DNA of 64,000 bases from Chloroflexota bacterium. Its GTDB lineage: Bacteria > Chloroflexota > Dehalococcoidia > UBA2247 > RBG-13-53-26. Under the pieces are notes generated by a model that saw nothing but the letters and a program-made list of their open reading frames with translations, did not search any database and had not been told where the DNA came from. The translations under genes were made by a program, and so were the position numbers. Positions 9,640 through 63,005 of this stretch are shown piece by piece (position 1 is the stretch's first letter; the number at the start of each line of letters is the position of its first letter). The stretch lies in assembly GCA_016875915.1 (NCBI GenBank), contig VGOM01000003.1, positions 66,716 to 130,715 of the forward strand, in the 5' to 3' direction.

Positions 9640-10395
9640 TTACAGGCCAACCCTGTCGATCAGTTGAGTCACCCCTGTTCGCAGGGGCGAGTCCTGAGGC
9701 AACTGGGTCGTCGGCAGGCCTTTGACCTCCAGTTCCGCCAGGTTGGGGTCCTGTCGTATGGTGGCCATCAGCTCGAAGTTGTACTTGTTGATCGTCTCCT
9801 CGATCTCCGGAGGCAGGCCGTTGAGGGAGCGGTTGACCACCAGGCAGACCTTGCCCACGCTGGTTCGCAGTTCCCTGACGAGTGACTTCATGGCGGCGGC
9901 GGTTCTGATCCCTCTCTGGGTGAGGTCGGAGACGATGAGCAGTATGTCCACGTCCCTGGTCGTCTGGCGACTGATGTGCTCCATGCCCGCCTCGCTGTCG
10001 ATGACCACGTAGCGGTAGTTCTGGCCCAGCTTGTCGATGGACAGACGAAGCATGTTGTTGGCCGCGCAGTAGCAGCCGGGCCCCTCGGGGCGCCCGATGG
10101 CCAGGAGGTCGAATCCCTTGTATTCGTCCAGGGCCGCCCGTATCCTGCCGTCCAGGTACTCCTGTTTGGACAGGGTGGGACTGAAGGCCCCGGTCTGCAC
10201 CGACTGGCTCATCTCCTCGCGGATCCGGCCCACGGTCTCCCCAACGGGCACGCCCAGGGCCTGATTCAGGTTGGTGGCCGGGTCCGCGTCGATAGCCAGG
10301 ACCACCCCCTTCTGCGAAAGGAGATGGACCAGCAGGGCAGAAATAGTTGTCTTGCCGGTCCCCCCTTTGCCGGCAACGACAACTGTGGTGGTCAT
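9640..10395 (-). CDS. cooC: CO dehydrogenase nickel-insertion ATPase CooC/AcsF
   Basis: P-loop VAGKGGTGKTT; MinD/ParA fold with CxC; operon context. Confidence 0.85.
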   Translation of the reverse strand: MTTTVVVAGKGGTGKTTISALLVHLLSQKGVVLAIDADPATNLNQALGVPVGETVGRIREEMSQSVQTGAFSPTLSKQEYLDGRIRAALDEYKGFDLLAIGRPEGPGCYCAANNMLRLSIDKLGQNYRYVVIDSEAGMEHISRQTTRDVDILLIVSDLTQRGIRTAAAMKSLVRELRTSVGKVCLVVNRSLNGLPPEIEETINKYNFELMATIRQDPNLAELEVKGLPTTQLPQDSPLRTGVTQLIDRVGL

Positions 10396-10404
10396 GCTGT
10401 CGAC

Positions 10405-11772
10405 CTACTTCTTGAGGTTTGCGGCGAAGCCCGGCAGGAAGGCCGGGATCTCGCTGGCCTCCCTGGGGCCGACAACGATCTCCCAGCCGGGGAGGGCCTC
10501 CCCGAGTTCGCCCCTGATCCGGGCGGTCAGTCCAGGGATGATCAGCTTCCGGGTCTTGGTCCGGCCTTCAATGCCGCACTTCCTGACGAAGGGGGCGATG
10601 CTGTCGCCGGTGAACTTGCCGGCGGCCCAGCCGGTGAGCACACCCAGCCCCTCGGTGTCCTTGACCAGGAGGTAGGAAGCCACCTTGCTCCCCTCGATCT
10701 CGGAGCTGACGATGAAGTAGGTCAGGGCCCAGTTTGAGGTGATCAGGACCGGGGAGTCCTCAGTGGGCGTGCCTATGTCATATACCTTCTCTTCCACCGA
10801 CAGCGGCATGCGCGGATCGGTGAAGATGTTGAGACGCTGCACCAGAAGCGGCAGCAGCGAGTGCTGATCGAAGTCGGAGAGGACGGTGATGGCGGCGAAC
10901 TTCACCACGAATGCGGAGGCGGCCAGCGCCTCCTTCAGCCCGCCCTTGGCCACAAAGCATGGGAAGGATATGGTTGGATAGCCCAGCGGCCGGAAGTTCT
11001 GCTTCACCGCCGCCCTGCGGATGAAGGTCTGGTCTCGTATTCCTTCCGTGAGGTTCTTGGAGCCGGGGTCCAGGACCAGATCATCGATCTTCTCTGCCTT
11101 CAGCTTGGTGGTCAGTGGAACAAGTTCAGCGATACTGGAAGCCTTGACTCCCAGAGGGGTTGGCGACTGCTTCACCCTGGGAATCACGGCGTCGATGTTC
11201 TCTTTGGTGATGGGATAGAGGAGCGGCTTTCGGTCGCCGCAGACGTCCCTGGCGGCGAACAGGGTCTCAACGTCGGTGCAAATGAGGACCAGCCCGGCAT
11301 CGGTGCTCGCGCATACCTTCTTCACCAGGGCCAGGTACTTGGCCTTGTCCCCGGATTCGTGTTGCAGGGCTATCAGGTCGGCCTTTAGCTTCAGCCCGAC
11401 CCTCTCGAACTGGATGTCTCTGACCTTCTTGATCTTGGCTTCTGCAACAGCATCGGAATCCTTGTCAGAGATGAGGATGGCTATGGCCGTGGGATGGAAG
11501 TAGGTCTTCTCATGCCGGTAGATCACCTCTTCGTTTCCGATCTGCACGGCGTTACTCCCGGCACCGATAGTGACCAGCTTGATGGCCGGCGCCAGGGCAT
11601 CCTCAAGCTCTGCCTTCACCTCAGCCGTCAGGTAGGGGCACTTGTCCAGCGTAGCTCCCCCTGAAGCCAGCTTCATGGCAAAGGCGAAACAGGTGGGGAA
11701 ACCGCACTCCTTGCAGTTCTTCTTCCCTGCTTCGGGCAGTCTCTTGACAACGTCGGTTCCTTTGATGGGCAT
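10405..11772 (-). CDS. cdhE: corrinoid iron-sulfur protein large subunit, CdhE/AcsC (gamma)
   Basis: N-terminal [4Fe-4S] motif CKECGFPTCFAFAMKLA...CPY, then a TIM-barrel/corrinoid domain; 455 aa. Confidence 0.9.
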   Translation of the reverse strand: MPIKGTDVVKRLPEAGKKNCKECGFPTCFAFAMKLASGGATLDKCPYLTAEVKAELEDALAPAIKLVTIGAGSNAVQIGNEEVIYRHEKTYFHPTAIAILISDKDSDAVAEAKIKKVRDIQFERVGLKLKADLIALQHESGDKAKYLALVKKVCASTDAGLVLICTDVETLFAARDVCGDRKPLLYPITKENIDAVIPRVKQSPTPLGVKASSIAELVPLTTKLKAEKIDDLVLDPGSKNLTEGIRDQTFIRRAAVKQNFRPLGYPTISFPCFVAKGGLKEALAASAFVVKFAAITVLSDFDQHSLLPLLVQRLNIFTDPRMPLSVEEKVYDIGTPTEDSPVLITSNWALTYFIVSSEIEGSKVASYLLVKDTEGLGVLTGWAAGKFTGDSIAPFVRKCGIEGRTKTRKLIIPGLTARIRGELGEALPGWEIVVGPREASEIPAFLPGFAANLKK

Positions 11773-11812
11773 GCTGAATCCTCCTCTATCTCAATGCAGT
11801 CCTATTCCGCAC

Positions 11813-13033
11813 CTAGATTGGCAGCTCTACCTCACCCTTTATCCAGGGGTGCCCCACCTTCTCCAGGAAGGCGGGAAGTTGGTCAACGGTCTTGACATCC
11901 TCTTCGCTGGCTATCTTGTCGTACAGGTCTGCCGGGATGACATCCTTGTAGCGTTCCTTGATGGCCTTGGGCATCCAGACTACTCTGCGCAGTCCGCCGT
12001 CTGCCTGGAAGAACTTCGGCGATCTGATCAGTTCCAGGGCCAGTCCGCAGGAACCCTCCACCTGTCTGCCGCCGGACGTTACCCCGGCCATCTTGGAGAA
12101 GGCCTCGCCGAGCAGCGTCGGCCCGACGAAATCCCTGTGGACGATGCCGAAGGCATCCACTTCTGGGATGTAGAACAGAATAGCCTGGAAGCAGCCACAG
12201 GAGGTGTGGGGGTGCTCAAAGGCGCTGTGGAGATAGACCCGATTGTATTCCCCCAACGATCTCTCGGCGACGCACTGATTGCAGCCACTGTATTCCCCCC
12301 TGCCGGGGTCCAGCAGTTCACCCTTCTCCACTCCGAAGATGGGACCTTCGGGATCCAGCTTGTAGGCCGCCTTGCCGTCAAACCAGTTGATGGCGCCGCA
12401 GTTGGCGATCCGCTCTGGAGTGATCACACAGCAGTGGGTGGGGGCGAAGCTCTGGCACAGGACGCAGCCGTAGAAGAGGTCCACGTCTTCTTCTCTCAGA
12501 CCCTTCAGCCTCTCATCCCTGGCCTCGTAGACCTTGAGGGCTTCGGCCAGCAACTCCTGGACCTTCTTCTCATCGGTGACCAGGGTGATCGATATCTTCT
12601 CGATGGCAGACAGCTCCGAGGTGTAGAGGAAGATCAGAATGTCCCCTACCTCCTTCAGGGAGTTGAGACCCTTCTTGAAGGAGGCCTTGCTCAACCTGAT
12701 CCAGACGTCGTTTCTCTGGTTCATGTGATACACGCCCTCTATGTAGTTGGCGTACATGTGCATCCGCCTCTCGATCACCGGCTCCATGTCCTTCTCTAGG
12801 GCCTCACCGGCGATATTGATCAGGATGGCTATGGGGTAGCTGGACCCCTCCGGCATATCCTTGATATCAGGTCCGATGACCTCCACCTTCTCGTGTTCGA
12901 TCTCATCGGGATTCTTCAGCGTCACCAGTTCGAACTTGGCCTTTGCCTTTGGACCGCCAAACTCGACCTGCATGTCCTCTTTGCGGATCACCTCGCCTTC
13001 ATACTGGGGCCCGATATCGACGTGAAACTCCAT
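11813..13033 (-). CDS. cdhC: acetyl-CoA synthase catalytic (A-cluster) subunit, archaeal-type CdhC (beta), short form of 406 aa
   Basis: A-cluster Cys-Gly-Cys (SCGCFQ) and upstream Cys ligands; operon context. Confidence 0.8.
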   Translation of the reverse strand: MEFHVDIGPQYEGEVIRKEDMQVEFGGPKAKAKFELVTLKNPDEIEHEKVEVIGPDIKDMPEGSSYPIAILINIAGEALEKDMEPVIERRMHMYANYIEGVYHMNQRNDVWIRLSKASFKKGLNSLKEVGDILIFLYTSELSAIEKISITLVTDEKKVQELLAEALKVYEARDERLKGLREEDVDLFYGCVLCQSFAPTHCCVITPERIANCGAINWFDGKAAYKLDPEGPIFGVEKGELLDPGRGEYSGCNQCVAERSLGEYNRVYLHSAFEHPHTSCGCFQAILFYIPEVDAFGIVHRDFVGPTLLGEAFSKMAGVTSGGRQVEGSCGLALELIRSPKFFQADGGLRRVVWMPKAIKERYKDVIPADLYDKIASEEDVKTVDQLPAFLEKVGHPWIKGEVELPI

Positions 13034-13034
13034 C

Positions 13035-13580
13035 CTATCCTTCCTCCTTCAATTTGGATACCAGGGTTTCCAGGAAACTCTTCCACTCCTCGTCCTTCCT
13101 GAAGTTCGGGAGTGAGAAATCAGCATTGGGGAACACGTATTTGCAGAGAGTCATGGTCTTCAAGTGGGGCGCGAAGTGCTTCAGAGTGGAGAGGCCCTGA
13201 TTCCCGAGGTCTGTCCTGATTCCGAAGAAGACCACCAGGTCGTGGTTGCCCTCCTTCCTGACGCCCTTCCAATCAGGATCCTTGAGGCGGTTGATTATCT
13301 CGACGACGTCATACTCGCTGTCGGGCTTGACCCCCAGTTCCATCATCTTGGCCCTGATGTGTGCCGTGGCGCATATCGGTGCCTTGGACGCCTTGGCTAT
13401 CTCCAGTGCGTATTCGACGAGGGACTTCCCGTCAAGGCAAGTGCCCAGCAATCTGGGGCCGAGCACGAATAGTGGTCGCTTCGCCCGCTTGATCGTGTCG
13501 GCAAACTCGGCAGCCTCGGTCACTACCTTGGCTCCCTTTGTCCCGGTTAGGACGTTGACCCTGTGAAGTGGCATCACCAT
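13035..13580 (-). CDS. cdhB: CODH/ACS epsilon subunit CdhB
   Basis: ~180 aa, positioned between cdhA and cdhC; typical CdhB size and composition. Confidence 0.7.
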   Translation of the reverse strand: MVMPLHRVNVLTGTKGAKVVTEAAEFADTIKRAKRPLFVLGPRLLGTCLDGKSLVEYALEIAKASKAPICATAHIRAKMMELGVKPDSEYDVVEIINRLKDPDWKGVRKEGNHDLVVFFGIRTDLGNQGLSTLKHFAPHLKTMTLCKYVFPNADFSLPNFRKDEEWKSFLETLVSKLKEEG

Positions 13581-13652
13581 AGCACTCGGTCCTCCTCGGT
13601 TGTCGACTCATGGCGTGTCGCGCGAATCATCAGTCTGCCCCCGTCACATTCC

Positions 13653-15965
13653 CTAGTGGATCACTGCTTCCAGAGGCACCTTGGTGGGATATGTGCCAAT
13701 CAGTGTGGGCAGGCTCAGAACGGGCTTGGGCTTCCAGCCGATCTCCTTGAGGTAGGTCAGTACCTCCTTCTTGTACACGATGGGGAGGTCCTTGTCGGTC
13801 CGGACATAGTGCTGCAGGTCCTCAGGCAGTCCGCTTCCCATATGCTTCTTGTACAGGGAGATGTAGTGATTGAGCTTGATCGCCCTGCCCTGCGGGGTGT
13901 CGTTCTTCCTGATACACAGCTTGGCGATGGTCACCATGGCTCGTTCCTTCGATTCCGTGACGTACACCAGGTGTTCTGGTGAAGGCTCCTCCGTGTCCAC
14001 GATTTCCCGTTTTCGCCCGTCCATGACCTTCCAGTCATCCTCGCCCTTCTTGCTGAGGTACAGTCTCCGGTATTTTGAGGAGTGAGGGCCGAGCAACACC
14101 GGGATGCCCATGCGGTTGCAGCCCGTGGCGATGGTGGCTGCCTTCTGGGAGTAGGCTCCCCAGGCCACTCCGCAGGCGCCCACGCGGTTGAGGATGTAGT
14201 CGGCGATAACCTCGTAGTTGCCCCTGAGAGGGAGGGTGGCGAAGATGTTGGCGATCTTTATGGCCGCCCCGGTGATGTGGGCATTGGCTACGCAGGAGCC
14301 CACGTTCACAACTCCTCCTGCGTCGAAGTTCCCCGGGAACCTCTCGTAGATCGTCTTTCCCTCGGCATCCTTCTTCATACCGGCCACCATAGCGGCGCAG
14401 CCGCTCATGACCACGATGTACTTCCTCTTGGCGAACTCCTCTGCCATCTCTACGATGTCGTCCACATCGGGGTAGTTGGAGCAGCCCACGAAGGCCACTA
14501 CCCCGGGGATGGTGCCGAGCACGATGGGGGCCCCGACGTTCCTGATCTCCGTGTCCATGATCGGGCCGCGTCCCGCCCTGACCTTGAAAGTATCGGTGCC
14601 GGCGACTGCCTGCATTATTCTCATTATGGGGATCTTGCGCGGGCAATCCTGATCGCACTTCCCACAGCCAATACACTCGTCAACCATCTGCCGCAGGGGC
14701 TCGAAATTGCCTTGCCCGGCCTGCCTTATCCCAGTCCCGATAGACATCAGGTTGGGACAGGCCCTCTCGCATATCTCGCATTCCCGACATGACTTGGCCA
14801 GCTCCTGGGCTTCCTTCTCGTCGAGGAGGTGCTTCCGTCTCTGTGGAGCCAGCTTCAGGGCCACCTTCACCGCCACCTCCCCGGCCTTCTCGTGGTCCAG
14901 GATGAGGTACTGCTTTCCTTCCTCGACCACCTTCTTCACGATCTCGTCGGCATCCATTTCGGTGGCGTCCTCGAAACCGTAGCAGGCCTTGTCCGAGGTG
15001 GCAATCATAGCGGTGCCCACCTTCTTGGCCTCTATGCCTACGTCAGTCCTGATGCACTGTTCATCCGTGACGATGACATCAGCTATCCCGGTCCTGACGT
15101 AGTAGAGCTGTCTGGAGAGCGGCCCGATCACCTTCGCCTTGTCGGCATATCTCGTGGTCTCCAGAGCGGTGCAGCAGATCCCGCCAACCTCCACCTTGTC
15201 GTACAGGTCGTTCTTGCGGAGATGGTCGATGATGTTCGTCGAGGTGGCGGGGTTGTGGCCGATGACCAGTATCGTCGGCTTGGCGATGTCCACACACGAG
15301 ACCCCAGCGTCGATCAAAGGCGTATCGGCAACCGAAGTTGGGTACTTGAAGCCGGTGATCTGGGCTATGTCGGCGGCTTCCATGACCACATGGTCCAGCA
15401 TGCCGGCATGAAGCGCCTTTGACTCGTAGTCCAGATTGCTGCCCTCCTGCCCCGTATTGAGGGCGGAAACCAGGTGGATCAGCTCACGTTCCGCGTATTC
15501 TACGGCCGTTCTCAGATCTGCCAGTGTCTCCGGCTTCAGGCCCAGCACTGTCCTGATGTTGGGGGCCTCAACGGCGACGTTGTCTCCCAGGTTGATCTTG
15601 CAGTCCTCGCCATGCTTCTCGATGAGGTAGTCGATGATATGCCGGGCATGGCCACCGTGGGCGGCCAGTCCCATACAGCAGGCCAGGAGCACGATCCTTC
15701 CCTGTTGACCGGCGATATCGATGCCGCAGGCTCCTCTCTTGCCCGCGGTGAGGTCGCACTTGCCGTAGGTGCAGAAACAGCACAGGTCGCAGAATGGTGC
15801 GTACCACGGAGCGTAGGTCTTCAGGAGCCTCATATCCCAGTTTCGCAGGTCGGCCACGTCTGGCATCGGCGTGGCGCCGATCGGCTCCCAGTTGTCTTCC
15901 GCCCTGATGATCTTCTCGATTTCCTTGCGTTTCTTGGTCTTCTTGTGTTCCGCTGTTTGCGTCAT
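13653..15965 (-). CDS. cdhA: carbon monoxide dehydrogenase catalytic alpha subunit CdhA (archaeal-type, with inserted ferredoxin domain)
   Basis: 770 aa. N-terminal Cys cluster CDLCCFCTYGKCDL; HcpC/CooS fold motifs; internal 2x[4Fe-4S] (CRECEICERACP, CIGCGKCDQDCP). Confidence 0.9.
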   Translation of the reverse strand: MTQTAEHKKTKKRKEIEKIIRAEDNWEPIGATPMPDVADLRNWDMRLLKTYAPWYAPFCDLCCFCTYGKCDLTAGKRGACGIDIAGQQGRIVLLACCMGLAAHGGHARHIIDYLIEKHGEDCKINLGDNVAVEAPNIRTVLGLKPETLADLRTAVEYAERELIHLVSALNTGQEGSNLDYESKALHAGMLDHVVMEAADIAQITGFKYPTSVADTPLIDAGVSCVDIAKPTILVIGHNPATSTNIIDHLRKNDLYDKVEVGGICCTALETTRYADKAKVIGPLSRQLYYVRTGIADVIVTDEQCIRTDVGIEAKKVGTAMIATSDKACYGFEDATEMDADEIVKKVVEEGKQYLILDHEKAGEVAVKVALKLAPQRRKHLLDEKEAQELAKSCRECEICERACPNLMSIGTGIRQAGQGNFEPLRQMVDECIGCGKCDQDCPRKIPIMRIMQAVAGTDTFKVRAGRGPIMDTEIRNVGAPIVLGTIPGVVAFVGCSNYPDVDDIVEMAEEFAKRKYIVVMSGCAAMVAGMKKDAEGKTIYERFPGNFDAGGVVNVGSCVANAHITGAAIKIANIFATLPLRGNYEVIADYILNRVGACGVAWGAYSQKAATIATGCNRMGIPVLLGPHSSKYRRLYLSKKGEDDWKVMDGRKREIVDTEEPSPEHLVYVTESKERAMVTIAKLCIRKNDTPQGRAIKLNHYISLYKKHMGSGLPEDLQHYVRTDKDLPIVYKKEVLTYLKEIGWKPKPVLSLPTLIGTYPTKVPLEAVIH

Positions 15966-15968
15966 GTC

Positions 15969-16874
15969 CTACCCCTGTTTGATGGTTTCTCTTACCAGCT
16001 TGAGTGTCTCGGGATGTCTCAACACCACCAGGTTTGCCCCGGCTAGGAGGAGGGAGATGGCGGTCATTCCTTCCCAGAGTATGCCCTGCTCCTTGTTCTC
16101 CTTGGCCTCCTTGGTCTTCCAGCACTCGCCTGCCACGTCGGCGATGATCGGCATCTGTGTCTGGGCGTCCTTGAAGATGACCCCGGTCTGCTTCGTTCTC
16201 TCCATGATGGTGAAGGTGTATTCCATGCCATACCCCAGGGCTGAACTCAGGGGGTCAATGACGACCCTGTCAGCGGGGAAGACCTTGGACAGTTTGATGT
16301 TCAGCTCTTTCATCAGGTTGATGTCCAGCGGGCTCTGAGCGATTATGGCATGGCCATTCTCTGCCGCAGCCTTGGCGATCACCTCGTAGTTCTCCTTCAC
16401 CACCGGGCCGAGGAGCAGGTTTTCGCCCTTGCACACTTCAGCCACCTTGGACAGCACCTGGGCGTCCTTCTTGTCGTCCTTTGACCCGCAGACGATCAGC
16501 GGTGCTCCCACTGCATCAGCCACCTTCTTGACCAGCTGTGCTGCTCCCTCTGCTGGGGCATTCTTGCCCGCCGGGTCGGTGCTCTCCAGTACCAGACAGA
16601 TGGCGTCCGCTCCATAGTCCAGGCACTTCTTGGCCCACTTGACGGGATCGGATATCACGTCTTGGAACGGTTCCAGGACCCACTTGGCCCATCCCTCTGG
16701 CGGTGAATCGAAGACTTGGAGGGCGAACTTGGGCGGGTTGGGTATGGAGCCCTCGTCGAAGAAATGGAAGGGGAGGGCATTCTCCCCGCCTATCTTCAAA
16801 GCCTTGGGGCCTTTGCCGATGGCAACCTCTCTGACCTTCCCGGTGTATGACTCGACTGCTGCTTTGTACTCCAT
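15969..16874 (-). CDS. cdhD: corrinoid iron-sulfur protein small subunit CdhD/AcsD (delta)
   Basis: 301 aa TIM-barrel protein directly upstream of cdhA; N-terminus MEYKAAVESYTGKVREVAIG resembles AcsD. Confidence 0.85.
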   Translation of the reverse strand: MEYKAAVESYTGKVREVAIGKGPKALKIGGENALPFHFFDEGSIPNPPKFALQVFDSPPEGWAKWVLEPFQDVISDPVKWAKKCLDYGADAICLVLESTDPAGKNAPAEGAAQLVKKVADAVGAPLIVCGSKDDKKDAQVLSKVAEVCKGENLLLGPVVKENYEVIAKAAAENGHAIIAQSPLDINLMKELNIKLSKVFPADRVVIDPLSSALGYGMEYTFTIMERTKQTGVIFKDAQTQMPIIADVAGECWKTKEAKENKEQGILWEGMTAISLLLAGANLVVLRHPETLKLVRETIKQG

Positions 16875-16900
16875 AGTCTGTCCCTTCTCCTTTCCTGTCT

Positions 16901-17815
16901 CTAGTCCTCCAACCAGGAATGGGAATATAGCGTCTGCCCCAGGAGGATCTGGGCTGTCTTCACATAGTCACGCTGCTTCTTGGAGAGGCTCGAGAGTACG
17001 ATATGTTCCTCGTCCATTGCCTTGTGGATGAGTTCGATGATGTCAGGCATCTTGCCCTGGTCTAGAGCCATTAGCTCCGCATCCAGGGGGTCGGCGATGG
17101 CGGAGTACAGTCCGTTTCGTTTCAGCATCATCAGGTAGGTGCGGTTGATGATCCCTCTGAGTTCCTCGGGTGTTCCATTGGACACATTTGAAAGGCCCAC
17201 TGTGGATTTGATGTCAGGCAGGATATCAGGCAGTATCTTGATGAACTCCAGGTCCGCGGTCACCTGTGTCTGGTCCGCGCTCACTGGCAGTACGATCGGA
17301 TCGACCCAGATGTCCTCGTTGGGGATGCCCAGTTCGTTGGCGTAGGCCACCGTGTCCAGGATGCTCTCTGTCCTCGATTCCACATCAGGCGGGCAACCCT
17401 TGTCTGTGAGCACTGACAGGACCACGGCAGTGTTGTACTTCTTGGCTAGGGGCAGCGTCTTCTCCTTGCTGTCGGTTCGCCCTGACGCCGAGTTGAGCAG
17501 TGGTCTCTTCTTGCTGGCCTTCAGACCTGCCTCCATGGCGATGGGATTCAGGGTATCTATCGACAACGGCAAATCGGACACGGCCTGCACGGTGTTCACC
17601 AGCCACTCCACGGTCTCCTCGGGGTTCTTCCTCGCTGGACCTATGTTCAGGTCCAGGTAATCCGCGCCTGCCTTGGTCTGAGCTATGGCCAGATCCTGGA
17701 TTACCTTGGCGTTTCTCTCCTTCACTGCTGTGGAGACTTCCTTGGAGATGATGTGGATATTCTCACCGATGATGATCACTGAGTACCTCCTTGCGTATTC
17801 TGAATGGCACGCCAA
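16901..17815 (-). CDS. acsE: methyltetrahydrofolate:corrinoid/iron-sulfur protein methyltransferase AcsE (pterin-binding, MtrH-like)
   Basis: 304 aa. Pterin-binding barrel motifs IIGENIH and DYLDLN; first gene of the operon. Confidence 0.85.
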   Translation of the reverse strand: MACHSEYARRYSVIIIGENIHIISKEVSTAVKERNAKVIQDLAIAQTKAGADYLDLNIGPARKNPEETVEWLVNTVQAVSDLPLSIDTLNPIAMEAGLKASKKRPLLNSASGRTDSKEKTLPLAKKYNTAVVLSVLTDKGCPPDVESRTESILDTVAYANELGIPNEDIWVDPIVLPVSADQTQVTADLEFIKILPDILPDIKSTVGLSNVSNGTPEELRGIINRTYLMMLKRNGLYSAIADPLDAELMALDQGKMPDIIELIHKAMDEEHIVLSSLSKKQRDYVKTAQILLGQTLYSHSWLED

Positions 17816-54622: not shown

Positions 54623-55522
54623 ATGAGACTCAGACTGATCTTGTTGGCCATTCTGGTTGCCTCATTCATCGCGCCTCTCGTCCCGGCAGGGCCTGCCGGC
54701 GATGTGCGTGGTGCGGACAGTGGGGCATGCAGGGCGTACATCCGCAACGTGGACGTGAGTTCGTACAACACCCCCGACCACGCGTTTCCAGTGGACTACC
54801 TCGAGACTGTAACCGTCAGAGTCGTCTCTCCCCTGCCTTTCATCAGCCACAAGGTGGATATGGCCTTCATGGACCTCTTCTCCTGGACCGTTTCGGAAGA
54901 AACGGATACCGGCACTGAGACCTCCTATGAGACGCCGGTTGATGTGGCAGACTACGCCGACTACGGGATCGGACTCTACAAGGTGACCGCGAGGGGAGTG
55001 CTGCAGGACGGGCGCACGTGTTCGGCCGTGGTCTTCATCGTGGTTGGAGGCACAACGCCGGTGAGCACCGTCGCGGGGATAGTTGCGCTTGTCCTGGCTG
55101 TCGGCGGAGCACTTGGTCTCCTGATACTGCTGATACTCATATTCATGGGCATTCTGGGTTCATCCTCGTTGGTCGGCTGCCTGGGCGTCTTGCCGTTTGC
55201 TGCACTGCTCATACCGTTGGCCATGGTCACAGGCGGCGGCCAGAGCTCAGGATCTGGCCAAACGACTGGATCGGGGGGCGCGCCGCAAGCACCTGCCGGT
55301 AGCCCGGACGCCTCCGGAGGCGGCGTGAAGTTCCGCCTGAAGATATCATTGCTCGCCATCGGCTGCGCGCTGTTGTCAACCATAGGGTTCGTTGTGCTGT
55401 TCCAGCAGATGGGTTCGGTGTACCCGACCATTACGGTCGTGGTGCTGTCGCTTGTGCTGGGGCTGGTCGCTGGTATTCTACTGCCAACACTGGCAGCGAC
55501 ATTCGCTCGTCGTCGGAAATAA
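54623..55522 (+). CDS. hypothetical membrane protein with N-terminal signal peptide and extracytoplasmic domain
   Basis: Signal peptide; ~150-aa soluble domain, then 4-5 TM helices and a Gly/Ser linker. Confidence 0.5.
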   Translation: MRLRLILLAILVASFIAPLVPAGPAGDVRGADSGACRAYIRNVDVSSYNTPDHAFPVDYLETVTVRVVSPLPFISHKVDMAFMDLFSWTVSEETDTGTETSYETPVDVADYADYGIGLYKVTARGVLQDGRTCSAVVFIVVGGTTPVSTVAGIVALVLAVGGALGLLILLILIFMGILGSSSLVGCLGVLPFAALLIPLAMVTGGGQSSGSGQTTGSGGAPQAPAGSPDASGGGVKFRLKISLLAIGCALLSTIGFVVLFQQMGSVYPTITVVVLSLVLGLVAGILLPTLAATFARRRK

Positions 55523-56436: not shown

Positions 56437-56712
56437 TCACAAGTGGTGGAAGAAGATGAGCAGGGCGTCGCCCTCATTGAGCGGTCCGTCGCGCTCGTCG
56501 TCCGGCAGCCTCTCTCCGTTGCTGAAGAACCATATCTGCGGGCGGATCATCCCCGCTTCGTCGTAGGCCCAGCGCTTCATCGAAGGGAACCTCTCCGCCG
56601 TGGCCCGGAGGCACTCAGTGGCGCTGCACGCCTCTACCTCGAATGCTTCCAGATCGCTGCTCAACTGGCTCAGATGGCGCAGCAGCCGCGATATGGTCAC
56701 CCTGATCTTCAT
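56437..56712 (-). CDS. MoaD/ThiS-like beta-grasp protein lacking the C-terminal Gly-Gly
   Basis: Alignable to the MoaD pattern (MKIRVTISRLL...GDALLIFFHHL versus ...GDEVAIIPPVSGG); sits downstream of acr3. Confidence 0.4.
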   Translation of the reverse strand: MKIRVTISRLLRHLSQLSSDLEAFEVEACSATECLRATAERFPSMKRWAYDEAGMIRPQIWFFSNGERLPDDERDGPLNEGDALLIFFHHL

Positions 56713-56737: not shown

Positions 56738-57835
56738 CTACCCGTGGGAGGCCGCCGCCCGACCTGGTTCCCCGCCGAAGTACCGCCGCTTGAAGTAGAG
56801 CGACACATTCACCAGGCTGATCAGCACCGGCACCTCCACCAGCGGCCCGATCACCGCTGCAAACGCCACTCCCGAGCCGATGCCGAACACCGCCACCGCC
56901 ACCGCGATAGCCAGTTCGAAGTTGTTGCTGGCGGCTGTGAAAGCGATGGTGGCTGTCTTCGAGTAGTCGGCCCCAACCCTCTTGCCCATGTAGAATGAGA
57001 CCAAGAACATCGCCACGAAGTAGATCAGCAGCGGGATGGCGATGCGCACCACGTCCAGAGGCTGATCCACTATCTCTTCCCCTCTGAGTGAGAACATCAC
57101 CACAATGGTGAAAAGCAGAGCGACAAGGGTCATCGGGCTGATGTTCGGGATGAACCTGCTTTCGTACCACTGCCGCCTCTTCGCTCTGAGCAAGGCAAAG
57201 CGGGTGAGCATCCCGCCAAAGAAGGGGATGCCCAGGTAGATAGCCACACTCCGGGCGATCTCTGCCATGGTCACCTCCACTGACGCCCCCTCCAGGCCGA
57301 ATTTGGGCGGCAGAACGGTGACGAACACGTAGGCGTACACGGAGTAGAACAGTATCTGGAAGATGGAGTTGAAGGCCACCAGACCGGCTGCATACTCCGT
57401 ATTCCCCTTGGCCAGCTCGTTCCACACGATGACCATGGCGATGCAGCGGGCCAGGCCCATCATGATCAGTCCCACCATGTAGTCCGGGTAGTCCCAGAGC
57501 ACCCCCAGGAACAGTATCGCCAGGAAGAACATCAGCACCGGGCCGATGACCCAGTTCTGCACTAGTGAGAGCCCCAGCACCCGCCAGTTGCGGAACACCC
57601 GGCCCAGCTCCTCGTACCTCACCTTCGCCAGAGGTGGATACATCATCAGGATCAGCCCGATGGCGATGGGTATTGAGGTGGTGCCCACCTGGAAGCGGGT
57701 GATGGTGTCGGCCACCTCGGGAACGAAGTTGCCCAGCCCCACTCCCAGCGCCATGGCCAGGAATATCCACAGCGTCAGGAAGCGGTCGAGCAGAGAGAGC
57801 CGGCCCATTCGGGTTCCCGGTTTGGTGTTGCTCAT
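56738..57835 (-). CDS. acr3: ACR3-family arsenite efflux permease
   Basis: Polytopic; [10 protein letters not shown] and MMYPPLAKV motifs typical of the ACR3/ArsB(Acr3) family. Confidence 0.85.
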
Positions 57836-57941: not shown

Positions 57942-58781
57942 TCACCCCAGCAGCTTGGCCAGCGCCTGGCGGTCGGCAGCGGCCTCAGGCTCACCCAGCG
58001 GCGGGCACTCCTCAAGGCGGGCCTTCCCCTTGGCCAGATCTATGGCGAAGGCCAGACAGGTCTTCCGGCCACACTCGCGGCAGTTGGTCTGCGGCAGGAA
58101 TTTGTTCATGGCCAGGCCCATGCCCATCTTCGACTTGCCCGGCTCGATGGCATGCTGCGGTTTGTGCTCCTGCAACACTGACGCGATCTTGTGGAACAGC
58201 GCCGGCTCCGGATACGCCCCCATGTCATGCACTGTGTAGCCCCTGAACACCACCGGATTCTCCTGGAAACAGCTCCAGACGGCCTTCTCTACTACCTTGG
58301 GGTCAAGCCCGGGTGACTTGGTATCGGTCTCTCCCGGGCGGCACAGCAGGCTGACGATGGTCACTATCTGCTTGTTGAATCTCTCGATCACCTCCACAGG
58401 GATGTTGTGCAGATATGGAGTCGGCGCTGTCGATCCGATGACCTGCTTCTTGTCATCAACACCGTTCCTCTTCAATGCCAGCAGCGTTTCCCCCGGCAGA
58501 TGCCCGGAGGACTCCCTGCCGCAGAGCACCAGATACCGGATATTGGGGTTGGCCACGATGTTGCATAGCATCTTCTCCGTGCCCACGTTCTCCGTCTGCA
58601 GCATGCCCGACAGCGCCGCCCCGGCGTCCATCCCTGCCAGAACCAGCGACTGCAGCTCGGGGGGAATCTTGAAGTCGAAATCGTCCAGGATCACGCAGAC
58701 TGCTACCGGGGAGAAGTCATTGCCCCTGACATAGCGCCCCGGCTCAGGAGGATAGCCCTCTGGCGGCTTCACTTTCAGCAT
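57942..58781 (-). CDS. MtrA-like corrinoid-binding domain fused to a CFeSP-type N-terminal [4Fe-4S] domain
   Basis: Blocks close to methanogen MtrA (PVAVCVIL, QTENVGTEKMLCNIVANPNIRYLVLCGRESSGH, NGVD, HNIPVEVIERF). C-terminal CRECGRKTCLAFAIDLAKGKARLEECP resembles the N-terminus of CdhE at 10405..11772. GGAGG RBS. Confidence 0.75.
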   Translation of the reverse strand: MLKVKPPEGYPPEPGRYVRGNDFSPVAVCVILDDFDFKIPPELQSLVLAGMDAGAALSGMLQTENVGTEKMLCNIVANPNIRYLVLCGRESSGHLPGETLLALKRNGVDDKKQVIGSTAPTPYLHNIPVEVIERFNKQIVTIVSLLCRPGETDTKSPGLDPKVVEKAVWSCFQENPVVFRGYTVHDMGAYPEPALFHKIASVLQEHKPQHAIEPGKSKMGMGLAMNKFLPQTNCRECGRKTCLAFAIDLAKGKARLEECPPLGEPEAAADRQALAKLLG

Positions 58782-58906
58782 CACGACTCGCCTCCAATTA
58801 TCAGGTATGGATACCCCCCTTGACAAAGCCCGGTGGTCGTAATATGATATGTCTCGATATATCGAGATATTACCCGATATAGTTCAAACCAGCAAGGGAG
58901 TTGGGC

Positions 58907-59404
58907 ATGTTCAGAACACACAGAATGTTCCACGACCACTGGCAGGAAAGCCCGTTTCAACGAGGAGACCTGAAGTACGTCATACTGGATCTGATAAAGG
59001 ACAAACCCCGTCATGGGTACGAGATCATACAAATCCTGGAGGAACGCTCTCACGGCTTCTACAAGCCCAGCCCCGGCGCCATCTACCCCACACTTCAACT
59101 CCTGGAAGAGATGGGCCACATTGAGGTCACTCATCAGAACGGTAAGAAGGTCTACACCATAACCGATGAGGGCAGACGCTTCTTGTCTGACCGTGAGCAC
59201 TTCGCAGACGGCATCAAGAGACAGATGAGGGATTGCTGGGGCAAAGGCAATGCTTCAGAGATGCGGGAGACCATGGCCGAGATAGGCAGGATCGGCAGGA
59301 TCGTTGGCAGGCGTTTTCGCAACTTGGACGCCGACAAGATGAACCGCATTCGCGAGGCCATCTCCAGGGCCCGCAAAGACATCGAGGCCATACTCGAGGA
59401 CTAG
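58907..59404 (+). CDS. PadR-family transcriptional regulator
   Basis: Winged HTH motif YVILDLIKDKPRHGYEIIQILEE...GAIYPTLQLLEEMG; divergent from the mtrA-like/acr3 operon. Confidence 0.75.
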   Translation: MFRTHRMFHDHWQESPFQRGDLKYVILDLIKDKPRHGYEIIQILEERSHGFYKPSPGAIYPTLQLLEEMGHIEVTHQNGKKVYTITDEGRRFLSDREHFADGIKRQMRDCWGKGNASEMRETMAEIGRIGRIVGRRFRNLDADKMNRIREAISRARKDIEAILED

Positions 59405-59420
59405 AAGGGAGGGAAACGGA

Positions 59421-59897
59421 ATGAGCGACATGAGTGACATGATGAAGGCCATGTTGGGCAGCATGAGCAAAGAGGAGAAGCTGGGGATGATGAGTACCAT
59501 GATGGAGACCTTCTTCGCCGGCGTGTCGGTCCAGGATAGACAGAAGATGATGGAGCAGATGATGCCGAAGATGATGGAAGGGGTCAACATGATGGAGATG
59601 ATGCCCAGGATGATGATGGGCATGATGCCAGCTATGATGGGCAGAAGCGAAGGCAGGGAAGGGATGACCCCGGTGATGGGCGGCTGTCACGGAGAGGGTA
59701 TGGGTATGATGCCGCAGATGATGGTCCAGATGATGCCGAACTGCGTCAAGATGATGCTTCCCGGTATGCCCAAGGAAGAGCGTATGGACTTTGTCTCCAA
59801 TATGGTCGCCACCCTGGTGGAGCAGGGCTCGGCCGGAATGTCGGAGGAAGAGAAGAGCGAGTTCGTGGCCAGGATACTGGAGAAGGTAACCTCCTGA
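59421..59897 (+). CDS. methionine-rich protein (~40 of 158 residues Met; MMP/MMxxMM repeats; one Cys-His pair)
   Basis: Strong GGGAGGG RBS 16 nt after the padR stop; GC3-rich codons on this strand, while the antisense His-rich ORF has T-rich third positions. Confidence 0.6.
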   Translation: MSDMSDMMKAMLGSMSKEEKLGMMSTMMETFFAGVSVQDRQKMMEQMMPKMMEGVNMMEMMPRMMMGMMPAMMGRSEGREGMTPVMGGCHGEGMGMMPQMMVQMMPNCVKMMLPGMPKEERMDFVSNMVATLVEQGSAGMSEEEKSEFVARILEKVTS

Positions 59898-60104
59898 AGC
59901 CCGCCGGGCTCCTTCTGTCGTCACCGCAGACCTGAACCACGTCCTGCATCCCCGTCCGCGGTTGCACCCCGTCCGGAGTCATCGCTGCTGCTCCCGCTTG
60001 ACCCACCTCATCAAGCCACGAGACCCCGCGGCGCAACCGCCCTGCGCAACCCCGGCCCCCAATCGTCTCCTCTCCACCACTTTGCCCCGCCCAAAGGGTT
60101 CGGT

Positions 60105-60385: not shown

Positions 60386-61807
60386 ATGATAGGAATCTGT
60401 TCGTACGGCGCATATGTACCCCTTTACAGACTGGCCCGGGAGATCATGGTCCTTGAGGGCAAAGGGGGTGCAGGCGAAAGGGCGGTTGCCGGGGCCGATG
60501 AAGATGCCCTGACCATGGCCGTTGACGCCATCCTCGACTGCACCAAGGGTATGGACCGCGGCTCGGTCGAGGCGCTGCTCACTGCCACCACCTCATCGCC
60601 GTTTGCGGAGAAGCAGTTGGCCGCCGCCGCAGCAGCCGCAGTCGATCTCAACGACAACATCATCACCGCTGACCTCACCGCTTCGCTCAAGGCGGGGCTG
60701 ACCGCCCTGAAGCTGGCCGCCGACATGGTCAAGGCCGGCTCGGCCAAGAAGGTCATGGTCGCCGCCACCGACTGCCGCCTGGGCACGCCGCTGTCCCCCG
60801 TGGAGTCCAACTCCGGCGACGGCGCCGCCGCCCTGCTCGTCGGTGACAAGGACGCCATCGCCACCATCGAAGGCTTCTACACCTTCGCCACCGACTTCAC
60901 CGACACCTGGAGGCCGGCCACCGACAAGTTCGTCCATGTCTGGAGCGACCGGTTCACCGTTGCCGAAGGCTACACCCCCATGATGCAGAAGGCCATCGCC
61001 GCTGCCATGAAGAAGTTCGGGGTCGAGGCCAAGGACATCTCCAAGCTGGTCTACAGCGGTCCCGACGCCAGGACCCATGCCGGCATCGCTGCCGCCCTGA
61101 AGTTCGACCCCAAGACCCAGTTACAGGACGGCCTCTTCGGTGTCATGGGCAACACCGGCGCTGCCTTCCCCCTGATGCTCCTGGTCGCCGCTCTGGAGCA
61201 GGCCAAGCCGGGTGACACCATCCTGGTCGCTGCCTGGGGTGACGGCGTGGACGTCATGCTTCTCAAGGTCACCGACGCCATCGAGAAGGCCAGGGACAGG
61301 CACGGTGTGCTGGGCTATCTGAAGTCCAAGAAGATGCTCCCCAGCTACGTCAAGTACCTCCGGCTGCGCCACCTCTTCTACTATGAAGCCTCCCGGATGA
61401 CCCCCATCACCCCAGGGTTGGCACAGCTCTGGAGGGAGAGGGACTCGATGTACAAGCTGCATGCCAGCAAGTGCAAGCAGTGCGGCTGGCTGGAGTTCCC
61501 CATCCGCCGCATCTGCCCCAAGTGCTACTCCAAGGACAGCTACGATCAGGTGAGACTGCTGGAGCAGAAGGTCAAAGTGTACAGCTTCAGCACCGATACC
61601 ATCCCCACCATCCCCGAGGTCACCGACCCGCCGCTGGGCCGGGCCATCGTCGACTTCGAGGGCGGTGCCAGGCTGGAGCTTGAGATGACGGACTTCGGCA
61701 ACATCCAGGATATGAAGATTGGTCAGCCCATGGAGATGACCTTCCGGAGGCTGGAGAGGCAGGGAGACGTCGCTGCCTATGCCTGGAAGTGCAAGCCGGT
61801 GCGATAA
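60386..61807 (+). CDS. HMG-CoA-synthase-like (thiolase-fold) domain fused to a DUF35 zinc-ribbon/OB-fold domain
   Basis: N-terminal GICSYGAYVPLYRL, as in archaeal HMGCS; C-terminal CKQCGW...CPKCYS zinc ribbon + OB. The position of the catalytic Cys appears to be Ser/Leu (TASLKAG). Confidence 0.7.
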   Translation: MIGICSYGAYVPLYRLAREIMVLEGKGGAGERAVAGADEDALTMAVDAILDCTKGMDRGSVEALLTATTSSPFAEKQLAAAAAAAVDLNDNIITADLTASLKAGLTALKLAADMVKAGSAKKVMVAATDCRLGTPLSPVESNSGDGAAALLVGDKDAIATIEGFYTFATDFTDTWRPATDKFVHVWSDRFTVAEGYTPMMQKAIAAAMKKFGVEAKDISKLVYSGPDARTHAGIAAALKFDPKTQLQDGLFGVMGNTGAAFPLMLLVAALEQAKPGDTILVAAWGDGVDVMLLKVTDAIEKARDRHGVLGYLKSKKMLPSYVKYLRLRHLFYYEASRMTPITPGLAQLWRERDSMYKLHASKCKQCGWLEFPIRRICPKCYSKDSYDQVRLLEQKVKVYSFSTDTIPTIPEVTDPPLGRAIVDFEGGARLELEMTDFGNIQDMKIGQPMEMTFRRLERQGDVAAYAWKCKPVR

Positions 61808-61817
61808 GAAGGAGGAA

Positions 61818-63005
61818 ATGATGGGTACCATAAAAGACAAAGTTGCCATAGTCGGAATGGGTTGCACCAATTTCGGGGACCTCTGGAGCAAAGGCGTCTC
61901 CGACATGATCATCGACAGTGCCTACGAGGCCTACCAGGATGCCGGGGTCGGACCCAAGGACATCGAGGCGGTTTTCGTCGGCAACGTCTCCTCCAGCATG
62001 TGGACCGGGGCCACGGTGACCGAGGCCCTTCAGTTGGACAAGATCCCCGCCACCAGGGTGGAGAACAACTGCGCCACCGCCGCCGAGGCTCTCAGGGTGG
62101 GTGCCTTCTCCATCGCCGCCGGCATGTACGACACCGTCCTCTGCGTCGGCTTCGAGAAGCTGAAGGACTACGGCAGCGGCGCTCTGGAGATGCCCGGCTC
62201 GCTGCACCCCATCTCTGTGGTCGGCTCGGCGCCTGGCTCCTTCGCCAAGTCTGCCGTGCAGTACTTCGAGAAGTACCAGATCCCCTTCCAGAAGGGCAAG
62301 GAGATGCTGGCCAAGATCGCCGTGAAGAACCACGCCAACGGCGCCCTGCACCCCAAGGCCCACTTCCGCCGGGCCATCACCCTGGAGACGGCCATGAATG
62401 CCCCCATCATCGCCTGGCCGCTGGGGCTCTTCGACTGCTGCCCGGTCACCGACGGGGCGGCCTGCGCCGTCATCACCAGCGCCGAGAAGGCCAAGGCCAT
62501 GAAGAAGCCCCACGTTCTGATCAAGGGACTGGGACTGGCCGTCGGCCGCATAGACCCGTTCAAGGGCAAGTTCCGCTCCGATGTTGACATCACCTTCTGG
62601 GACGAGACCTGGGCGGCGGCCCAGCAGGCCTATCAGCAGGCCGGGGTCAAGGACCCCCGCACGGAGATCGGCTCCGCCGAGGTCCACGACTGCTTCACCA
62701 TCACTGAGCTGATCATCTACGAGTCGCTGGGATTCTGCCCCCGCGGCAAGGGCCCCGAAGAGGTGGAGAAGGACTCCTTCACCCTGACGGGTGATCTGCC
62801 GGTCAACACCGACGGCGGACTGAAGTCCTTCGGCCATCCAGTTGGCGCCAGCGGTCTGCGCATGGTCTACGAGCTGTACAACCAGCAGCTTGGCAGAGCC
62901 GACAAGCGGCAGCTGAAGAATCCCAAGCTCGGTCTGGCCCATTCCCAGGGCGGCACGCCGGGCATGTTCCAGGCGTCTGTGACCATCGTTGGTCCCGGTA
63001 ACTAG
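61818..63005 (+). CDS. SCP-x-type (nonspecific lipid-transfer) thiolase
   Basis: VAIVGMGCT active-site Cys region; C-terminal HxxGAxG (GHPVGASG); AAGGAGG RBS. Confidence 0.85.
   Translation: MMGTIKDKVAIVGMGCTNFGDLWSKGVSDMIIDSAYEAYQDAGVGPKDIEAVFVGNVSSSMWTGATVTEALQLDKIPATRVENNCATAAEALRVGAFSIAAGMYDTVLCVGFEKLKDYGSGALEMPGSLHPISVVGSAPGSFAKSAVQYFEKYQIPFQKGKEMLAKIAVKNHANGALHPKAHFRRAITLETAMNAPIIAWPLGLFDCCPVTDGAACAVITSAEKAKAMKKPHVLIKGLGLAVGRIDPFKGKFRSDVDITFWDETWAAAQQAYQQAGVKDPRTEIGSAEVHDCFTITELIIYESLGFCPRGKGPEEVEKDSFTLTGDLPVNTDGGLKSFGHPVGASGLRMVYELYNQQLGRADKRQLKNPKLGLAHSQGGTPGMFQASVTIVGPGN

Follow-up and report, generated by a model that had tools for sequence, protein, structure and literature searches.

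We analyzed a 64,000-nucleotide stretch of DNA from a Chloroflexota bacterium (contig VGOM01000003.1, positions 66,716 to 130,715 of the forward strand; hereafter, the window) and focused on a minus-strand gene whose predicted product joins a cobamide-binding domain related to MtrA, subunit A of tetrahydromethanopterin S-methyltransferase (Mtr), to a C-terminal iron-sulfur (FeS) domain. The gene is the first of an operon that also encodes the arsenite efflux permease Acr3. Having traced its relatives across genomes and metagenomes, we conclude with considerable confidence that the family is a dedicated component of ars operons in strict anaerobes, normally co-transcribed with acr3. We regard the odds as roughly even that these operons encode a cobamide- and FeS-dependent system of anaerobic bacteria and archaea that makes or breaks arsenic-carbon bonds, in parallel to the corrinoid and FeS proteins HgcA and HgcB. 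The favored reaction, to which we assign a probability of just under 0.4, would be an HgcAB-like transfer of a methyl group from cobalt to As(III). Both the fusion of a corrinoid to an FeS protein in this form and its strongly conserved ars context are new: no published description of an association between MtrA-like proteins and ars genes was found in the literature searched, and this literature, which included a 2018 survey of ars genes and a 2026 review, mentions no corrinoid protein in ars operons. This agrees with the initial annotation of the window, which was made from the sequence alone and knew of no described system of this form.

The gene and its parts are as follows:

57942..58781, minus strand: coding sequence of the MtrA-like/[4Fe-4S] fusion, 279 aa, stop included (open reading frame (ORF) and translation; PF04208 and PF04060)
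58182..58781, minus strand: residues 1-200, MtrA-fold cobamide-binding domain with a conserved C-terminal extension that carries an AVWSC[FY]QE motif
58500..58502, minus strand: codon of His94, counterpart of the lower axial cobalt ligand His84 of MtrA (aligned to the GH of 5LAA and 8Q3V)
58098..58181, minus strand: residues 201-228, flexible linker (predicted local distance difference test, pLDDT, 34-54), missing or substituted in short forms of the family
57999..58097, minus strand: residues 229-261, PF04060 [4Fe-4S] domain with C234, C237, C242 and C259

Translation starts at an ATG at 58781, preceded by a GGAGG 8-10 nt 5' of it, and ends at a TGA stop at 57942-57944. A protein identical to the product, P0001, is annotated in a Chloroflexi metagenome-assembled genome (MAG).

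Several searches agreed on the identity of the first domain. The Pfam family PF04208 (MtrA) matched residues 3-146 with E=1.7e-36 (125.9 bits against a cut-off of 25), and a phmmer search of the PDB returned as best hit for this part 5LAA, a cobalamin-bound cytoplasmic MtrA homologue (E=1.9e-34), as well as the Mtr complex 8Q3V (7.6e-32). An AlphaFold2 model, built with 56 family members, placed residues 21-200 above a pLDDT of 85, with a disordered linker (residues 207-226) and moderate values for the FeS domain; when the model was compared with the PDB by Foldseek, the only significant matches were MtrA structures, with target-normalised TM scores of 0.73-0.80. The initial annotation had aligned residues 1-200 block by block with MtrA. 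The MtrA domain itself stands, but the alignment to canonical MtrA is restricted to residues 3-146, and residues 147-200 form an extension common to soluble MtrA-like proteins. The NCBIfam model of a soluble "MtrA" subunit A subfamily, NF002126, does span residues 2-200, at a score barely over its cut-off (164.6 bits against 161), and the MtrA equivalog TIGR01111 was not reached (118.2 bits against 249).

Compared with the MtrA structures 5LAA, 5L8X and 8Q3V, the window protein shares the Rossmann-like fold, is 48% identical in the core, and keeps the histidine ligand, the Glu-Asn loop and the contacts to the nucleotide tail. Unlike MtrA, it has a 10-residue helix insertion (residues 41-50) and an FeS domain at its C-terminus, its "meander" motif has diverged, and it resides in an ars operon of a bacterial host rather than in an mtrEDCBAFGH operon: its neighbours are a PadR regulator, acr3 and a small ORF, and the host is a Chloroflexi MAG. 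We searched the protein for a transmembrane anchor or a hydrophobic C-terminal tail and found neither; a PF04060 domain of the type known from the corrinoid iron-sulfur protein (CFeSP) and from RnfB stands in place of the anchor, just as initially annotated. Nor did the protein match PF03599 or a Fer4 domain in Pfam or contain any transmembrane segment, and PADLOC returned no match to a defence system.

The residues that hold the cofactor in MtrA are known in detail. The cobalt ligand is His84, to which Glu54 forms a hydrogen bond; Asn55 binds a propionamide, the nucleotide tail is held by Thr53, Gly57 and Asn64, and the base is sandwiched by Tyr18 and Val61 (PMC4915002). The same study mentions in passing MtrA homologues in bacteria and extra copies in methanogens, and assigns them no function. 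We assessed conservation in an alignment of 119 long and 120 short relatives of the window protein, plus four spirochaete sequences. Across the long and short relatives, Y17, T63, N65, G67, N74 and H94, which correspond to MtrA Tyr18, Thr53, Asn55, Gly57, Asn64 and His84, show no or almost no variation; position 71, the equivalent of Val61, is hydrophobic throughout. The meander motif, tied in MtrA to energy coupling in the pump (PMC4915002), has diverged from GAIP[FY]xEN (MtrA, from 109) to APTPYLHN in long forms and LxxYLYN in short forms. The window protein is most likely a real corrinoid protein. Since the contact residues are conserved, the meander has diverged and the anchor is absent, we infer a soluble, base-off/His-on cobamide protein that would bind cobalt through the predicted ligand His94, outside any Mtr pump.

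We also considered Cys73 and Cys171, the latter in the AVWSC[FY]QE motif, as an ars-specific As(III)-binding pair. This candidate was dropped, as the C-Q-E cysteine is family-wide among 150 representatives: in the form C[YFIL]QE, it occurs in many MtrA-like proteins that have no ars context, and canonical MtrA has an equivalent. Cys73, too, is found in family members outside ars contexts, including fusions unrelated to ars genes.

The second domain matched PF04060 (E=4e-14), and its closest PDB relatives by phmmer were the N-termini of the CFeSP large subunits 2H9A and 4DJD (~1e-9). Its cysteines, C234-x2-C237-x4-C242-x16-C259, are spaced identically to C20...C45 of CdhE, the CFeSP large subunit encoded in the same window (10405-11772, minus strand). 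The architecture is reminiscent of AcsC/CdhE, in which a Cx2Cx4Cx16C PF04060 domain on a flexible linker shares a single chain with a cobamide domain, and in which the cluster serves the reductive activation of cobalt. The two proteins differ, however, in that the FeS domain is N-terminal in CFeSP and C-terminal in the window protein; in that the cobamide domain of CFeSP is a Rossmann/TIM-barrel pair (PF03599 in the window CdhE), whereas that of the window protein is of the MtrA type; and in that CFeSP is base-off/His-off, whereas the window protein is predicted to be His-on and has neither a small subunit nor an acetyl-CoA synthase (ACS) partner encoded nearby. Most plausibly, the C-terminal FeS domain supplies cobalt with the low-potential electrons needed to convert Co(II) or Co(III) into Co(I).

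The FeS module is most closely related (57% identity) to the C-terminus of an ars-island protein that we term FeS181. This family, of approximately 180 aa, combines an uncharacterised N-terminal domain with a C-terminal PF04060 domain (L001:5040-5585; homologues in L025-L052; L147:7787-8593), and is encoded in ArsR/ArsP/ArsE/Acr3 islands of Actinomycetota, Desulfobacterota, Anaerolineae and Methanothrix, including islands that lack an MtrA-like gene. We tested FeS181 as a relative of DUF3786 and found no relationship. Other MtrA-like proteins carry different additions: a 2x[4Fe-4S] ferredoxin domain in P0246 and Cys-rich C-terminal domains in P0250 and P0253. The contigs that encode Fer4-fused and TusA-fused relatives were too short for their gene context to be informative. 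Because the FeS domain is fused in one lineage and encoded adjacently in another, the cobamide domain and an electron-input domain appear to form a functional pair, as they do in CFeSP and HgcA/HgcB. A separate group of MtrA-like domains is fused to methanogen-type thymidylate synthase (P0278, P0279, P0284, P0285, P0287 and P0298; TIGR03283 scored 219 bits in P0279), some of them without the histidine ligand; we know of no described function for such a fusion.

Homologue searches returned thousands of relatives in two forms. Dehalococcoidia and other Chloroflexota have long, FeS-fused forms; Methanoregulaceae and Spirochaetota have short forms of approximately 225 aa, without the FeS domain. 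To characterize their genomic context, we collected 101 loci from species-representative genomes, metagenomes (biased toward freshwater sediments) and exact-protein look-ups, which collapsed into 84 clusters at 95% identity, 69 of them with at least 1.5 kb of flank. Neighbours were annotated by tblastn with a purpose-built reference set, comprising ArsM (NF008823, 341 bits), ArsE (TIGR00412), ArsF (NF040494), ArsG (NF040495), pI258-type ArsC, DGC, ArsP_1 and ArsR; the identities of the reference proteins were checked against NCBIfam and Pfam.

The link to metal(loid) genes that had been proposed on the strength of a single locus proved far stronger in this survey, and the refuting outcome named by the initial annotation, a lack of any such genes beside the orthologues, is decisively contradicted. 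An ars-island gene was present in 64 of the 69 dereplicated loci, Acr3 in 55 of them, and all 23 dereplicated clusters flanked by 5 kb or more on each side were collinear ars islands, spanning two domains of life. The usual gene order is arsR-arsP-arsE-(DGC)-(arsF-arsG)-(arsC)-mtrA-like-acr3-(arsM). Acr3 is the commonest and tightest neighbour (22 of 24 fully flanked islands, median gap 64 bp). Where arsC is present, the median gap to it is 11 bp (11 loci), and in a complete Methanoregula genome the start of the mtrA-like gene overlaps the arsC stop; ArsC is absent from most Dehalococcoidia islands with the FeS-fused form. The SAM-dependent (S-adenosylmethionine-dependent) methyltransferase gene arsM lies inside the island in 10 of the 24, and directly adjoins the mtrA-like gene in two loci (L023 and L065). 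One apparent exception to the island pattern, L135, has arsD and arsA instead. Cys-rich proteins also recur in anaerobic ars islands (L055, L056, L145-L147 and many metagenome loci), among them DGC (PF08859), C_GCAxxG_C_C, DUF169, DUF6951 and MauE/DoxX-thioredoxin fusions.

Only one long MtrA-FeS form was found outside an ars island. This 64%-identical form (L108, 5279-8501) is followed by DUF3786 and a convergent corrinoid methyltransferase of the URO-D family (MtaA/MtbA-like), a hint that ordinary methyl-transfer pathways may use some members of the family as methyl carriers. We then clustered all ORFs within 5 kb of the 101 loci in search of a recurrent partner. Only ars and thiol-redox genes recurred; genes for methyltransferases of the MT1, MT2, URO-D, MtrH/AcsE or pterin-binding type were not among the recurrent neighbours. 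Among the 24 fully flanked islands, none encodes an MtrH/AcsE-type partner and none contains mtr genes. The AcsE-like methyltransferase suggested as a partner by the initial annotation thus finds no counterpart in these islands, and the AcsE-like gene of the window lies 40 kb from the mtrA-like gene, inside the cdh operon.

A second ars-linked lineage emerged in cultured methanogens. A distant MtrA homologue of 182 aa, the archetype of NF002126 (263 bits), is encoded in Methanosarcina sp. UBA5, within an ars island and directly 3' of arsM, and its relatives in the complete genomes of four cultured methanogens are all embedded among ars genes:

Methanosarcina mazei (CP009513): MtrA paralogue divergent from usp-acr3, with arsD-arsA close by
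Methanomethylovorans hollandica (CP003362): arsP-metallophosphoesterase-arsE-DGC-paralogue; arsR
Methanolobus psychrophilus (CP003083): arsE-DGC-paralogue-x-arsC; arsA and arsD
Methanohalophilus mahii (CP001994): acr3, DGC, MtrA paralogue, convergent 268-aa PF04060 FeS protein, arsP, PadR

In three of these cultured Methanosarcinaceae, DGC lies immediately 5' of the paralogue. Like the window protein, the Methanosarcinaceae paralogues are soluble and occur in ars islands beside DGC, ArsE, ArsC, Acr3 and ArsM; unlike it, they have no FeS fusion, M. mahii having a separate, adjacent PF04060 gene, and they are only 38-41% identical to it. In a rough neighbour-joining tree of approximately 130 columns, they group with canonical MtrA, apart from the window clade. 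As the two ars-linked lineages branch separately in this tree, the arsenic link is either old or arose twice.

What reaction might such a protein catalyze? We favor methyl transfer to As(III). In the proposed sequence of events, cobalt would be methylated by a housekeeping donor, either methyl-tetrahydrofolate or methyl-tetrahydromethanopterin via resident AcsE/MtrH-type enzymes, or SAM. The resulting CH3-Co(III) would hand its methyl group to As(III), methylarsenical products would exit via island permeases or as volatile arsines, and the FeS domain would return cobalt to its reduced state following each turnover or an oxidative inactivation. Methylcobalamin-dependent formation of dimethylarsine by methanogen extracts was reportedly observed by McBride and Wolfe in 1971. 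Two further points lead us to favor this reaction. First, methanogen systems are described in which methylcobalamin and cob(I)alamin methylate and hydrogenate arsenic (Thomas 2011 and Wuerfel 2012, as cited in PMC13262295). Second, HgcAB shares the logic of a corrinoid protein and an FeS carrier with no dedicated methyltransferase gene, and recurs beside ars genes, hgcAB having repeatedly been found next to acr3, arsC, arsM and arsR (PMC7438021). HgcAB, the pair that methylates mercury, transfers its methyl group to a toxic metal. The resemblance is one of logic and neighbourhood: HgcA has an unrelated, CFeSP-like fold, a cysteine "cap-helix" ligand and a transmembrane domain, and HgcB is a separate 2x[4Fe-4S] ferredoxin.

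Several observations weigh against methyl transfer to As(III). The methyl source is assumed, since no methyl-loading gene (MT1, MT2 or MtrH/AcsE-type) recurs in the islands. The tightest neighbour, Acr3, exports inorganic As(III) rather than methylated products, and an As(III)-making enzyme would therefore fit better. SAM-dependent ArsM is frequently present as well, and beside it another route of methylation would be superfluous. Short forms do without the FeS domain altogether. Finally, Glu64, the equivalent of the MtrA Glu54 that contacts the cobalt ligand, is invariant in FeS-fused forms but is replaced by Ala or Pro in short forms.

The strongest rival, although in our estimate an unlikely one, runs in the opposite direction. 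Here, Co(I) would take a methyl cation from monomethylarsenate (MAs(V)), dimethylarsenate (DMAs(V)) or their thiolated forms to yield CH3-Co(III) and As(III) or MAs(III); Acr3 would export As(III), and the methyl group would enter one-carbon (C1) metabolism. Such a reductive demethylase would be an oxygen-independent counterpart of ArsI. Acr3 being the closest and most frequent neighbour speaks for it, as the gene for an ars enzyme usually lies next to that for the exporter of its product, and the complete cdh operon of the window organism could accept the methyl groups. The hosts are taxa of anoxic sediments, wetlands and peat and include Methanosarcina mazei, a reported demethylator of DMAs (Chen 2023, as cited in PMC13262295), and published accounts describe how DMAs is demethylated under anoxia as unknown, though thought to pass via corrinoid proteins (PMC10579292; PMC6776024). 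Set against this, substrate-specific MT1 and MT2 genes are absent from the islands, a futile cycle would arise in the 10 of 24 islands that also contain arsM, and the Methanoregulaceae are hydrogenotrophic, whereas demethylation is assigned to methylotrophic methanogens (PMC10579292).

Somewhat less likely still is a redox module that performs no methyl transfer, in which electrons would flow from ferredoxin through the [4Fe-4S] cluster to Co(I), and from there to arsenate reduction, arsine formation or thiol-disulfide proteins (ArsC, ArsE, DGC, GCAxxG and ArsG). No corrinoid protein that serves simply as a reductase of arsenate or disulfides is known to us from biology, and this counts against such a role. 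It would suit the richness of the islands in thiol-redox proteins, the translational coupling of the mtrA-like gene to arsC in Methanoregula with the short arsC gaps elsewhere, and the lack of ArsC in most of the Dehalococcoidia islands whose MtrA-like protein is FeS-fused. Yet the MtrA-like protein coexists with ArsC in several islands, and is hence no simple replacement for it, and the short forms lack the very domain that would deliver the electrons. In chemical terms, cob(I)alamin is described as yielding arsenic hydrides (Wuerfel 2012, as cited in PMC13262295).

We consider it improbable that the protein merely binds arsenic through its conserved cysteines, as an Acr3 chaperone, a sensor or a decoy, with a vestigial or structural cobamide site. 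Cys73 and Cys171 do not vary among the ars-linked forms, whether long or short, and ArsD is a known example of a metallochaperone in an ars system. We nevertheless rank a chaperone or sensor role low because both cysteines occur outside the ars-linked members and because the conserved cobalamin contacts argue for a working cofactor site; in addition, the repeated FeS fusions make sense only with a redox-active cofactor. The last alternative, an ordinary methyl carrier of C1 metabolism (a misplaced MtrA or a CFeSP analogue) that lies next to acr3 by chance, would accord with the name given by NCBI and JGI (tetrahydromethanopterin S-methyltransferase subunit A), the Wood-Ljungdahl cdh operon of the organism and the relative that neighbours a URO-D methyltransferase and no ars genes, but it is effectively refuted by the ars synteny (23 of 23 fully flanked dereplicated loci in two domains of life), and the protein falls under the MtrA equivalog cut-off and has neither an mtr operon nor a membrane anchor.

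If the system does make or break arsenic-carbon bonds, biology would have a third route to this chemistry, beside SAM-dependent ArsM and the O2-dependent C-As lyase ArsI. ArsM and ArsI resemble it as enzymes of ars operons that form or cleave As-C bonds, but share no kinship with it in sequence or fold; the MtrA-like protein would use a cobamide and FeS cofactor and act independently of both O2 and SAM. It would provide a dedicated enzyme for the methylcobalamin-dependent methylation and volatilisation of arsenic long observed in methanogens, or one that could explain how methylarsenicals are demethylated under anoxia. At present, the methylation of arsenic that methanogens carry out with cobalamin is viewed as a side reaction, incidental and not subject to regulation (PMC13262295); the conservation of a corrinoid protein in ars operons suggests that cobamide-arsenic chemistry is instead a selected and probably regulated function. 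Arsenic methylation and demethylation in anoxic soils control the arsenic load of rice and straighthead disease. The ars operons with a corrinoid protein span Chloroflexota, Spirochaetota and several methanogen families, including the cultured, genetically tractable Methanosarcina. They also represent a second, independent corrinoid and FeS module in arsenic neighbourhoods after hgcAB, and may bear on the native role of HgcAB. For annotation, thousands of "tetrahydromethanopterin S-methyltransferase subunit A" entries in non-methanogens are mis-named and can mislead reconstructions of methane metabolism.

Around the mtrA-like gene, the window contains the following features:

56738..57835, minus strand: acr3, arsenite efflux permease, operon gene 2 (TIGR00832, 457 bits against a cut-off of 283)
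56437..56712, minus strand: 91-aa small protein, operon gene 3, possibly of beta-grasp/ThiS-MoaD-like fold, without a C-terminal GG
58797..58870, no strand assigned: divergent promoter-like region (promoter-like hexamers) with a 22-bp palindrome at 58849-58870, ATGTCTCGATA/TATCGAGATAT
58901..59404, plus strand: divergent PadR-family regulator (PF03551, E=1e-20)
59421..59897, plus strand: Met-rich 158-aa protein, co-oriented with PadR and directly after it, no family match

The operon had been described as mtrA-like > acr3 > moaD-like. Its second gene is a genuine acr3, and no terminator-like site was detected in the intergenic sequence scanned between it and the mtrA-like gene. The name of the third gene is weakly founded: the 91-aa ORF has no PDB or Pfam match, and its only match, to a SAMP1/ubiquitin-like family, is below threshold (E=4e-4, 20.8 bits against 60). 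Homologues of this ORF adjoin MtrA-FeS genes in two further loci (L007 and L124). Regulation also appears to differ from the common pattern, in which an ArsR gene stands at the head of most homologous islands; the window has PadR and the palindrome instead, so that PadR likely regulates the operon in place of ArsR, with the palindrome as its putative operator. The Met-rich protein, with runs such as MMPRMMMGMMPAMM, is kept beside MtrA-FeS in three other loci (L057, L058 and L063) and may bind a soft metal.

Just 3' of the operon lie a secreted-looking protein with collagen-like G-x-x repeats (PF01391; 55629-56297, minus strand) and a 299-aa multi-pass membrane protein with no family match (54623-55522, plus strand), an arrangement kept in L057-L059. 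At 60386-63005 (plus strand) lies a 473-aa ORF with no Pfam match at E<=1e-8, which overlaps a thiolase-like gene (PF00108/PF22691) at the start of the latter. The GC content of the mtrA-like/PadR region (57.3% over positions 58001-60000) is below the window average. Orthologues of Acr3 that are 61-83% identical to that of the window adjoin the MtrA-like gene in other phyla (Spirochaetota and Methanoregulaceae), and this identity, together with the low GC, suggests cross-domain horizontal transfer of the acr3/mtrA-like module. The remainder of the window consists of chromosomal housekeeping genes (PolA, H+-PPase and FeoB) and the cdh operon. The latter is a complete, archaeal-type operon for carbon monoxide dehydrogenase/ACS (9640-17815, minus strand), encoding a CooC-like ATPase, CdhE with its FeS domain, CdhC, CdhB, CdhA, CdhD and the AcsE-like pterin methyltransferase, and its GC content is 57-60%, against approximately 64% for the remaining window.

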